Assembly (NCBI GenBank): GCA_000165345.1
Contig: CM000436.1
Location: 800,001-864,000, forward strand
Direction: 5' to 3'
DNA length: 64,000 bases
Shown: positions 22,151 through 47,317 of the stretch, piece by piece
Layout: each line of letters opens with the position of its first letter
How positions within the stretch are numbered: position 1 is the first letter of the stretch
Notes under the pieces: generated by a model
Seen by the model: the letters and a program-made list of their open reading frames with translations, nothing else
Told to the model about the DNA's origin: nothing
Database searches by the model: none
Translations under genes and position numbers: made by a program

Positions 22151-22589
22151 ATGAAGTTAATCAAGAGACGGACTATTTACTTTGAAAATGAAAATATAAA
22201 TGTGATTGTTATTGATTTTGGAGCTTCATTCTATGTATGGGTTGGGAAATTTTCTAACATTGAATTGTTATCTGTATCATTTCCTCTTTCGGTAAGTTGC
22301 AAACGTCAATTTTTTGTGGCTAAACGAAAAATTTCAAGAATAAAAGTATATCCGATGAATTCGCATCCTCATCATTATTAGGAGAGGATGAATTGTGTAC
22401 ATCTATTTCATCGTATTTGTGTAAGTAATTATTTTAAATTTTTGATTTAACTAATTCAATATAGGCAGACAATTGAAAGCACCAATATTACTGAGCATCA
22501 ATACAGGAAATATTGAGATAAGTGATATCAATATTAATGAATTCAAACATTTAATAAATAAAAACATAGTAGATTTGATCATGGAGTAA
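22151..22589 (+). CDS. Proteasome assembly chaperone 3 (PAC3/PSMG3)-like small protein, three exons: 22151..22291, 22339..22420, 22465..22589
   Basis: Exon 1 (track ORF 22151..22381) ends at TCG|GTAAGT, followed by a 47-nt intron. Exon 2 ends at TTTGT|GTAAGT, followed by a 44-nt intron. The frame is continuous to TAA at 22587-22589. The product is MKLIKRRTIYFENENINVIVIDFGASFYVWVGK...SSLLGEDELCTSISSYLCRQLKAPILLSINTG.... ENINVIVIDFG..VWVGK and LLGEDE resemble the PAC3 motifs (VVVTQFGK, LLGQDEP). Confidence 0.4.
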
Positions 22590-41279: not shown

Positions 41280-41809
41280 ATGAAGGATGTATCTGCTATA
41301 AGTGGATTGATGGGTTCATACCTTCTAAAAGGATGGATAATGTTAGGCGATGCTTGCCCATCTGTAAGTATCAAATAAATTCAAAATATTCTTAACTCAG
41401 CTAGTGTGAAGAGGTACCTTTATTAGAAGATCCTTCGAATGGACTGAAGTATTGTATGAAATGCTCTCCTCCAATGATATCCAGTAGAAGCTCAAATAAT
41501 AAATTAGCTGAATCGTTAAGCAACGAAGAAAAACTGAATATGTTCACTAATATCGAAGCAGACTGCACTAATAAAGAAAGTGGTAAAATAACAATTAAAA
41601 ACACTCTCGAAGAAAACGTTAACCATATGGTAGTTGAAATATCAAAAATAGGTGTGAGCGCATTAAACAGCGCAGATTTTAGTATAGAGAGGAGGTAAGT
41701 TATTTTTTTTCTTAAACTACGGTTAATTGCTTAAAGACTAGATATTGTTGACAAGGCGGCAAACACCATACACAAATTACTTAGCATCTATATGCTCGAC
41801 TATAAATAA
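41280..41809 (+). CDS. SSSCA1/p27-family zinc-ribbon protein (Auto_anti-p27 domain), three exons: 41280..41363, 41405..41694, 41737..41809
   Basis: Exon 1 encodes MKDVSAISGLMGSYLLKGWIMLGDACPS and ends at TCT|GTAAGT, followed by a 41-nt intron ending in CTAG. Exon 2 (containing track ORF 41456..41698) begins CEEVPLLEDPSNGLKYCMKC, completing the zinc ribbon CPSC...CMKC. Exon 2 ends at AG|GTAAGT, followed by a 42-nt intron ending in TTAAAG. Exon 3 reaches TAA at 41807-41809. Confidence 0.6.
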
Positions 41810-43734: not shown

Positions 43735-43907
43735 TATTATTATCTGATTAAATTACTAGTTACATTATGAAGTTTAGTTGAACTTGCAAAAAAACACTCA
43801 CATTGGCGCCTAAGTATCATTATCTCGCAAGATTGTCACTAAATGCATGACTTGAAAAGATAATTACAAAAGATAATTAATTAAAAATCTTATCTATCTA
43901 TAATAAT

Positions 43908-44468
43908 CTAAAGTTTTCTGTTGATAATTGCAATATCGTCTATCGAAAGATCTCGCCCAATTAATAGTCTTTTGCTAATAGCTCTGTGTAAGCTCTATCA
44001 AAAGTTATACAGTAAATTTACATAGAAATAATCAGTAATCGACTTACAGACAACGTAAACGCTTCCCCCCTAGCTCTATCGTTTTGCTCGTCGAGAAGCT
44101 TGAATAAATCCATTAGCCACGTGTTTGGTGATTTTCCTTCATCAATGTGCCTAATGACAATCACATGAAACGTAGAATCTATTAATACTTACTTAATGAA
44201 TCCTAATGGAATTTCTTCTTTTGATAGACTTGAATCCGAAAGAATGCTTTGCGCACTAACTAACAGGTTAATATATTCCTGGCTTAAAACAAAAATGATT
44301 AATTTAAATTTTAAGTAATAAAACTTACACATCGTTTTTCAATTTGTTTGAACTATCTGTATTTTTATGGCTACTAGAGATAACTATTTCGTTAGTAATG
44401 GTTGTTAAGTTTCTTATAATGTTAATGTAGCACTCTAAGAGAGGGTCTATAGATACCTTGTTCTCCAT
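43908..44468 (-). CDS. Mediator complex subunit MED10 (Nut2) homolog, four exons: 44468..44329, 44282..44193, 44150..44048, 43994..43908
   Basis: This gene is absent from the ORF track. Three introns of 46, 42 and 53 nt all carry GTAAGT donors and AG acceptors, and the frame is maintained. The product is MENKVSIDPLLECYINIIRNL...QEYINLLVSAQSILSDSSLSKEEIPLGFIKHIDEGKSPNTWLMDLFKLLDEQNDRARGEAFTLSSLHRAISKRLL.... The segment IPLGFIKHIDEGKSPNTWL matches the MED10 core (VPLEVFEYIDQGRNPQLY). Confidence 0.6.
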
Positions 44469-44563
44469 TCTTCCTATATTAATTCTGCAAATGGCTTAAC
44501 TCTTGATATATTTTAATATACAAAAATTAATCGGCAAATTGCCACGCGAAAAAAAAAACCTTT

Positions 44564-47317
44564 TTATTCAGATATTTTTGATTTAATAAATTTCATAAAG
44601 CGCATAGAATATTTATCTGGTGGAACCGCTGAAATGCCGTTTGATGATCCAATAATGATTGCTTTGTAAAGTCTTTCAAACTTCTTAATGGTGCTCCAGG
44701 TTGAGAAAAAGTCAATAAATCCCAGGTAATAAACTTTCTTTTGATCAGAAGAGAGAATTCCAACGAACTTTCTATTATTCTTATTTTCAATAAGAGACTT
44801 GATGTTCATGGCGTCATCCTGCACATAATGTATTCCAATCAGGAGCGAATAATCCATTATGTTATAAAGTTCAAAAAATTTACAGTCTACTTCTAGTTGC
44901 TTTAGCAAATCTATTTGATCTTGCTGATTAATGTGCAACATTTCCTTATTATTCTTCATGTCCAACTCTTTTAAAGCAATAGTCTTATCTTCCTGAAGAA
45001 TTAAAGGCGTCGACCTTCCAATCCAGCTTCCCTTTATATCGTATCTTCTATGTATTTCAACGGGAGTATGAAAAATATTCTCCATTACAATGAAAAAAAT
45101 TTTGTGTATCTTGCTTTTCCTTAATATTGAATTGCCATTACTCGAAATTTGTTCCCTAATTGTATTGAATGGTTGAAGTAGAGGCTTTTTAAATCTAAGA
45201 GCATGAAGCCCATATATTCTCGTTATTAAACTGTTCTGGTTGCTTTTAATATGGTTAAAATACTTGCTCAATATGCTTCTAAAGAACACTGCCGTCTTTT
45301 TTCCCACAGTTTTTATTAAAAATCTACCGTCTGTAGTATAGTAGAAAAATGCACCAGACTTTCCTTCGCTACATAATTCATTCATTGAAGACAAATTTCC
45401 CAATACCATATTTCCCAATAACTGTTCTGGGCCAACGCTTCTTACATATGATTCAGGAGAAATATTGCATATTTCGCGGATCTTTCTGAATACCATGGGA
45501 TTATAATCAATAAACTGTACAGGCTTCATGAATCCTCTATAATCATTTGACTTTTGAATTAAAACATTTGATTTAGTGTTTGATTCCCTTGAAGTCCTGG
45601 GAATTATAAAAAACTTTTCTTTCATTATAAAGTCATAATCTGCGACATCTCGGTTCGGTTCTGAATAAACTCTCCCAATTGCCAGCCTCATTCCAACCAT
45701 CATATTCAATACTGTATTCCAACTTTCATGGCCAATGTAAACTGCATATCCCTTCGTTATTTTCACTACAGGAACATTTATACCACTTATCGTGGGTGTT
45801 TCCTTTTCAGAATGAGAATGTTTGGACTTTATTGAAGATACATTTGCCCTGGAACCCTTCACTTTAATTTTACTTGATGTCTTTGCCATATTTTGGAATC
45901 CTCTGCTAATATTGCTTCTGCGCCTATAAGTGTGTATCAAGGAGACTCGCTTCCGATTATTAGAACAATAGCTGTTCCTAGTATAATCAAGGGTACTGCT
46001 CGACTTATGCATAAACGTTTTCTTAATCATTTCGCTTGCAGACATACGATGTTTAGTATTCGGAGCAACATTACCTTTATTAATGTACATTTTCCTTCGA
46101 TTATAAACTTTTTTTATTATTCCCAAATTGAAATTGTTATATGTTACGATTTGAGATGGTGGCACCATATTCTGCAAAGAATAGATACTTTTTTTGCAAA
46201 TTGAATCGAGCATCTCAATATTATTATTCAATACACTTTTAAGCAAGAGCATGTCATGAGTAAATATTTTTACTATGCTATTAGTATCAGTAAAATTTTG
46301 AGCTTCAAACATATTTGTGCTTTTATTGATATCAAAAAGCATACAATTTAATAAATTATTTTCATTTGGGCTACGAATCCATTTTTCTAGAGTGTTAAGC
46401 GAATCAGTTGTCTCTTGTTTAATGTTTTTAATGTCCTCTAAAATATTAAAGACCTGTAGTTTCAGTCGAGAAGTAAATTCCTTTTCAATAGACTCGTTAT
46501 ACTCAACTCTATCAATTGGTTGCCTATTAAAAATATTAATTCCCTCGAATATTAACGGCGATTTCCTATTTTCAATATCTAAGTCATAAGATTCAAGAAT
46601 ATTCGGGGTTATTATTCCAAAAAATGAGAGAAACTCTGGGGAGTCTTGAATAGCCGCTTTATAACTTTCAAAGTAGATTTTGGGTTCATTTTGTTCATCT
46701 TTCACTGTTGAATAGTCGTTGAAAAAATTTTTAATTTCTTGATCCGAGAAATTTAATATTTGCGGCCCAACAAGCATATATCTAGCACTATCAATTGCTC
46801 TAATAGATTTTAATAACTTCTCAAAGGTGATCCCATCACTCAAATTCATATAATTTTCTCCCTTGATTACCCTGTAGGAAAACCTTGCCTTTTCATCGAA
46901 ATTATCAGAAATCATTATCGCTAGTGCTCTACCAAACTCGTAAAAATCAAGCAAGTTATTGTTATCAGTGTCCATCGCGTTAAAAATCATTTGAGAAAGA
47001 AGCCCATCATCTAATAGCCCCAAAACGATTCTAAACCTCCGAATATCCATGAATCCTAGTGTGTGATGTCGAGATAAAATCAATTCAAATTTATTTTGGC
47101 ATTTAATATATATAAATATATATCATTATAGTTACGAAATACTAATATTAAAGAGTTAATAATATAACTTACCATTATCTGAGTTTGAGATAAATGTATT
47201 GTAAAAATCCCTAATTTGCTTTGTGGATAGGTTTGTCTCATTTTGGATTTTTGTAAAAATATCTTGTTTTAATTTGAAACTTGAACATTTCCTAAAGAAA
47301 ATTTTGATTTTATGCAT
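44564..47317 (-). CDS. Phosphatidylinositol-4-phosphate 5-kinase (PIP5K) fused to an N-terminal EF-hand/neuronal-calcium-sensor-like domain. Two exons: 47317..47173 and 47055..44564, with the intron at 47056..47172.
   Basis: The PIPK catalytic core reads GKSGAFFYYTTDGRFLIKTV...MDYSLLIGIH...LGFIDFFSTW. The upstream exon encodes MHKIKIFFRKCSSFKLKQDIFTKIQNETNLSTKQIRDFYNTFISNSDN and ends at AATG|GTAAGT. A 117-nt intron ends in CACTAG and joins in frame to GFMDIRRFRIV...DTDNNNLLDFYEF (EF-hand loop). The NCS-PIP5K fusion is the architecture described for apicomplexan PIP5K. Confidence 0.8.

Follow-up and report, generated by a model that had tools for sequence, protein, structure and literature searches.

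Can a 561-bp interval that is missing from a track of long open reading frames (ORFs) encode a subunit of the Mediator complex? The question is raised by positions 44468-43908, on the minus strand, of the window analysed here, a stretch of 64,000 nt (positions 1-64000) of Cryptosporidium parvum chromosome 8 in which 30 ORFs of at least 150 aa are densely packed on both strands at a G+C content of 32%. A first-pass annotation of this DNA had read the interval as a four-exon MED10 gene. Our analysis shows a gene of four exons and three introns that forms a single open frame when spliced, and we put the probability that it encodes the C. parvum Med10 (Nut2), which belongs to the middle module of Mediator, at about 95%.

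All features of the gene lie on the minus strand. Exon 1 (44329-44468, 140 nt) begins with the ATG at 44468-44466, which is the first start codon downstream of an in-frame stop, and ends in phase 2. It is followed by intron 1 (44283-44328, 46 nt, GTAAGT...AAG), exon 2 (44193-44282, 90 nt), intron 2 (44151-44192, 42 nt, GTAAGT...TAG, phase 2), exon 3 (44048-44150, 103 nt), intron 3 (43995-44047, 53 nt, GTAAGT...TAG, phase 0) and exon 4 (43908-43994, 87 nt), which includes the stop codon TAG at 43910-43908 and whose end matches that of the deposited C. parvum models. The three GTAAGT donors that had been proposed are present at exactly 44328, 44192 and 44047, and each leads into a pyrimidine/A-rich tract with an AG 42-53 nt on; the introns end in AAG (44283), TAG (44151) and TAG (43995), so that the matching acceptors are present as well. 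The G+C content of the introns is 13-29% (13% in intron 1), against 31-45% in the exons.

Joined together, the four exons give 420 nt in frame and a product of 139 aa, MENKVSIDPLLECYINIIRNLTTITNEIVISSSHKNTDSSNKLKNDVQEYINLLVSAQSILSDSSLSKEEIPLGFIKHIDEGKSPNTWLMDLFKLLDEQNDRARGEAFTLSSLHRAISKRLLIGRDLSIDDIAIINRKL. A continuous product of 147 aa had been predicted; the continuity of the frame holds, and the length has to be corrected to 139 aa. The central peptide on which the Med10 assignment was originally based, EEIPLGFIKHIDEGKSPNTWLMDLFKLLDEQNDRARGE, is found in the spliced product as residues 69-106, where it crosses the junction between exons 2 and 3. Intron 2 interrupts the conserved core motif (IPLGFIK/HIDEGKSPNTW, the slash marking the intron), and exon 3, the most conserved part of the gene and the core of the Med10 domain, encodes HIDEGKSPNTWL...RGE, which is invariant throughout Cryptosporidium.

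The absence of this gene from the track of long ORFs is explained by its architecture, since the unspliced ORF pieces of the locus measure 47, 47 and 48 aa and none exceeds the last of these lengths. Plus-strand ORFs beneath the gene reach only 28-40 aa and were treated as chance. Pieces of such a size also invite the reading that there is no gene at all, and that three GTAAGT hexamers and a few short ORFs have come together by accident in AT-rich intergenic DNA. Each strand of the 64-kb window carries 17 copies of GTAAGT, and a simulation based on position alone gave P of about 0.036 for three of them inside 281 nt of one strand. This value is not overwhelming; what carries the case for a MED10 gene is the continuous frame, the profile match and the conservation of the locus.

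The profile match was obtained with the Pfam family Med10 (PF09748), the check that the first-pass annotation had suggested. The spliced protein scored 33.9 bits (E 3.2e-8), about 10 bits over the curated gathering score of 23.3, and the match is colinear, aligning residues 26-119 of the protein with positions 13-104 of the 119-position profile and spanning all three junctions. When the three unspliced ORFs and two halves of the protein were scanned singly against the same profile, none passed, the best being the exon-3 ORF with 15.8 bits. It thus takes splicing at the proposed junctions to produce a significant match.

Conservation was examined across the genus. Among public proteins, four Cryptosporidium clusters were found, with 98%, 80%, 76% and 65% identity, several of them already named Med10. 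By species, identity to the C. parvum protein falls from 98% in C. tyzzeri through 80% in C. ubiquitum, 76% in C. canis and 65% in C. felis to 42% in C. muris, and the C. hominis protein belongs to the same 90% cluster as that of C. parvum. The order PIP5K-MED10-DnaJ seen in C. parvum is kept in C. ubiquitum, C. canis, C. felis and C. muris. For these four loci we searched for sets of exons that reproduce each deposited protein, and in all five species, C. parvum included, this gave four exons with introns at the same positions and in phases 2, 2 and 0. Exon 2 measures 90 nt and exon 3 103 nt in 5/5 species; exon 1, at 140 nt in the intestinal species (C. parvum, C. ubiquitum, C. canis and C. 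felis), is longer only in C. muris, where it has 161 nt. The donors of the orthologues are GTAAGT, GTACGT, GTGAGT or GTAAAC, and the acceptors are all AG. Intron 1 ranges from 44 to 84 nt among the five species, in lengths that are not multiples of 3, and intron sequences are unconserved among the orthologues. The gene of C. muris differs from the others in a longer N-terminus (160 aa in total) and longer introns (84, 58 and 52 nt), and that of C. felis in a 12-aa C-terminal extension.

In DNA alignments, substitutions within the exons fall mainly at codon position 3 (60/95, 76/120 and 84/152), and the exons are free of indels, while the introns diverge faster and contain them. A pattern of this kind marks a coding gene that is spliced and maintained by purifying selection, and by the same comparative reading the three introns are older than the split between gastric (C. 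muris) and intestinal Cryptosporidium. The notion of a chance arrangement is refuted by this conservation: third-position bias, exons without indels, a frame kept across five species and a Pfam E value of 3e-8 exclude it. Frame continuity, the Pfam match and cross-species conservation together place the MED10 gene far beyond chance.

Public records agree with this gene model. The identical 139-aa protein has been deposited four times for C. parvum (KAL5367067.1, QOY40091.1, WKS79586.1 and WRK34089.1), under names that include "Transcription factor subunit Med10 of Mediator complex" and with the locus tag CPHLJ_8g3275; the deposited protein shows no difference from the product of the window and represents the same gene. 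In four C. parvum chromosome-8 assemblies the MED10 span is 561 bp, equivalent to 43908-44468, and the exon boundaries agree. Over 6,561 bp compared, the window is identical to three C. parvum assemblies and differs by one base from the fourth. The annotation of the IOWA-ATCC assembly (GCA_015245375.1) reports introns that are 100% supported by RNA-seq (PMC8744675), and because it holds this very MED10 model, it provides indirect transcript support for the junctions.

A gene that is real but has other exon boundaries would be the natural alternative at this point. Further AG dinucleotides do lie 4 nt (CCAG, intron 1) and 2 nt (ATAGAG, intron 3) downstream of the chosen acceptors, and one of the introns might be retained. 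We consider such a variant extremely improbable. Either alternative acceptor changes the reading frame, for which reason the +4 nt and +2 nt positions were rejected as candidates, and any retained intron truncates the frame, the unspliced ORFs stopping after 47-48 aa. The chosen junctions alone give a protein that is colinear with Pfam Med10, identical to the deposited one and in agreement with the intron positions and phases of the five species.

These records also bear on the novelty of the locus. The name Med10 is already in use in C. parvum, C. hominis, C. tyzzeri, C. felis and one further species, and UniRef applies MED10 to C. ubiquitum and C. canis as well. The gene, its exon structure and its Med10 assignment are therefore already known from public records for several Cryptosporidium species, and the marker that had been put forward as useful is not an unannotated one. 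A full-text literature search for the CryptoDB-style identifier cgd8_3275 found no paper. The original C. parvum annotation gave introns to only 4.3% of genes, a figure later raised to about 10.8% (PMC4637869). Models of uneven quality are still found: the C. hominis record CUV07879.1 is a fragmentary MED10 model of 72 aa ("unnamed protein product, partial") in which an intron is read into protein, the C. ryanae record KAH8739528.1 is a 77-aa fragment ("hypothetical protein"), and metagenome sets hold fragments of 43-46 aa that consist of exon 1 only. The present case can be seen as one of quality control, in which a reading of the raw sequence recovers a short multi-exon gene missed by ORF-based tracks, and short multi-exon genes such as MED10 are those still mis-modelled in some Cryptosporidium assemblies.

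With the gene established, the next question is whether its product is truly a Mediator subunit. Its length of 139 aa falls within the about 130-160 aa of Med10 proteins, and only helices were assigned (DSSP) in both AlphaFold2 models. The C. parvum protein contains the Med10 core motif (I/V)P(L)xx(V/I)x(Y/H)I(D/E)xG(R/K)(N/S)P and, after it, a helix that terminates in ...RG(E/K). In a single-sequence search of the sequences of solved structures the best match was yeast Med10 (5oqm_k, E 2.2e-4), and the residue-by-residue alignment passes through the IPL..I..G..P motif, which is SLSKEEIPLGFIKHIDEGKSPNTW in the Cryptosporidium protein; the resemblance to the MED10/Nut2 core that had been noticed by eye is thereby borne out. 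Human MED10 reached an E of only 0.76 in this search, and identity to both yeast and human Med10 is low. A profile built from 12 sequences and run against the PDB sequences gave top five matches that were all MED10 (S. cerevisiae, S. pombe, human and mouse), with E values of 3.3e-8 to 8e-3. Among the 12 aligned sequences P72, H78, S84, P85, W88, G105 and E106 are invariant.

Structure models add a layer of lower confidence. AlphaFold2 reached a pLDDT of 63.2 with a 5-sequence alignment and of 64.2 with a 12-sequence alignment, both low, and the predicted layout consists of helices alone: a pair at the N-terminus, a short one and then a long one at the C-terminus. Low model confidence is expected here, as the subunit folds only inside a multi-protein helical bundle. 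With the first of these low-pLDDT models, Foldseek found nothing significant in the PDB. With the second, the top four matches were Mediator-PIC chains, the Med10 chain 5oqm_k among them, at probabilities of 0.96-0.99 with E values of only 0.008-0.05 and a TM-score of about 0.35. Otherwise the fold searches mostly returned generic helical bundles.

This last outcome, together with the low confidence of the models and with the weak hits to designed proteins (helical repeats and bundles) that accompany Med10 in the structure-sequence searches, is what would be seen if the product were a generic short helical or coiled-coil protein with a spurious Med10 match and no Mediator subunit. We regard this as very improbable. 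The Pfam score exceeds the curated cut-off by 10 bits, the match includes the specific loop motif IPLxxIxxIxxGxxP and is not limited to heptads, the top ranks of the profile search are held by MED10 chains alone, and every independently found distant relative passes Pfam Med10. On the combined sequence evidence the product is a Med10-family protein, encoded by a spliced gene that is conserved and syntenic across the genus. The proposed MED10 identity is thus supported both by a score above the curated threshold and by the Med10 name of the identical deposited proteins.

MED10 is flanked by the PIP5K and DnaJ/DnaJ-X genes, and the adjoining intergenic spacers measure only 95 and 173 bp. The 95-bp spacer that separates the stop codon of PIP5K from the start codon of MED10 (44469-44563, minus strand) carries a T-run and then CGCG near its 5' end, and presumably comprises the MED10 promoter and 5' UTR. 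Within it, at 44520-44555 (minus strand), the T-run is followed by CGCGTGGCAATTTGCC, in which GGCAA/TTGCC forms a 5+5 palindrome. A T-run and GC-box-like sequences (TTTTTGCGGG and GGGGCGGC) occupy the equivalent position in C. ubiquitum, C. canis and C. felis, and a GGCGCC palindrome lies at about 43805-43815 (minus strand), upstream of the DnaJ gene. We take these spacer motifs upstream of MED10 and DnaJ to be similar to the E2F-like elements described in front of Cryptosporidium genes.

Other genes of the window show differences between annotations. PIP5K (44564-47317, minus strand) has two models among four near-identical assemblies, one of 828 aa that starts inside the long ORF and one of 878 aa with an extra 5' exon. 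An intron at 47056-47172 (minus strand, GTAAGT donor at 47172, 117 nt, TAG end) opens the 878-aa frame, whose additional N-terminus may extend a region that appears EF-hand-like by eye. Four assemblies with identical DNA give three models (122, 138 and 148 aa) for a small gene with the Pfam domain Auto_anti-p27 (41280-41809, plus strand). Which model results apparently hinges on the GTAAGT at 41695: either it serves as a donor, or the frame continues into it and stops at the TAA that it contains. Another GTAAGT lies at 41364. Further GTAAGT sets at 22292/22421 (plus strand), 18484/18614 (minus strand) and 47585/48028/48657 (plus strand) might mark additional short-intron genes. A scan of the whole 64-kb window against Rfam at gathering thresholds returned no RNA family.

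Med10 has no enzymatic function; it is listed in the middle module of Mediator with Med1, 4, 7, 9, 21 and 31, and yeast requires it for viability (PMC2475620). Med10 and Med4 are described as universal subunits, with Med14 anchoring the tail module to them, and the Cdk8 kinase module is apparently absent from apicomplexans (PMC2475620). Apicomplexan Mediator, Med10 included, had been described earlier through comparative genomics (PMC2475620) and Plasmodium proteomics (PMC9088918). In Plasmodium falciparum, 14 Mediator subunits have been predicted and 11, among them Med10, co-purified with PfMed31; the co-immunoprecipitation recovers Med10 with Med4, 7, 21, 14 and others (PMC9088918). The view that Mediator subunits are poorly annotated in apicomplexans consequently needs qualification: it does not fit the Plasmodium data, and it holds to the extent that fragmentary or unnamed models of MED10 remain in C. 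hominis, C. ryanae and gregarines.

The three very short GT-AG introns of the C. parvum gene (46, 42 and 53 nt) have to be removed to yield the 139-aa protein, predicted to be all-helical. As suggested by the yeast and human Mediator structures and by the P. falciparum co-purification, C. parvum Med10 would have no catalytic activity and would act as a structural subunit. Its helices would pack with other middle-module subunits and with the Med14 scaffold, and in this way the protein may help to form the bridge that carries signals from DNA-bound transcription factors to RNA polymerase II at the pre-initiation complex. Cryptosporidium Med10 most probably has the same architectural role as its counterparts, within a reduced Mediator made up of head, middle and Med14.

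The wider family is small. An exhaustive profile search yielded only 13 proteins at E values up to 0.001; the relatives outside Cryptosporidium come from gregarines (Lankesteria, Porospora and Blabericola), Colpodella and metagenome contigs, and all eight distant relatives scanned against Pfam Med10 (8/8) lie above the cut-off. P. falciparum Med10 (PF3D7_0707600) was not recovered by these searches, in which gregarines and Colpodella supplied the nearest matches outside Cryptosporidium. One could speculate that Cryptosporidium, gregarines and Colpodella share a distinct Med10 subtype, in which a core of the form H(I/V)DxGxSPNxWL with invariant His78 and Trp88 replaces the fungal and animal YI(E/D)xGRNPxxY. 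The three short introns have kept their places and phases since before the gastric and intestinal Cryptosporidium clades parted, in a genome where about 90% of genes have none, and their retention might be functional, for example through splicing-dependent expression of a stoichiometric complex subunit; or else the altered core might stem from a contact with parasite-specific Mediator subunits that has been rewired. We rate this proposal as unlikely, and if true it would add a modest new point on the transcription machinery of apicomplexans.

Compared with the Med10 proteins of known structure, the Cryptosporidium protein is alike in size and different in much of its sequence. Yeast Med10/Nut2 (5oqm chain k) and human MED10 (7emf chain J) are likewise small, at 135-157 aa. 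The yeast protein shares a 24-residue core motif that aligns with the SLSKEEIPLGFIKHIDEGKSPNTW segment, and the profile match is near full length, while overall identity to the yeast and human proteins is low, at 15-18% in structural alignments. Within the core, His78 and Trp88, invariant in the apicomplexan-type subfamily, replace two residues that are both Tyr in yeast. P. falciparum Med10 is, like the protein described here, an apicomplexan Med10 predicted from sequence, and it is the sole one for which physical evidence has been obtained (PMC9088918).
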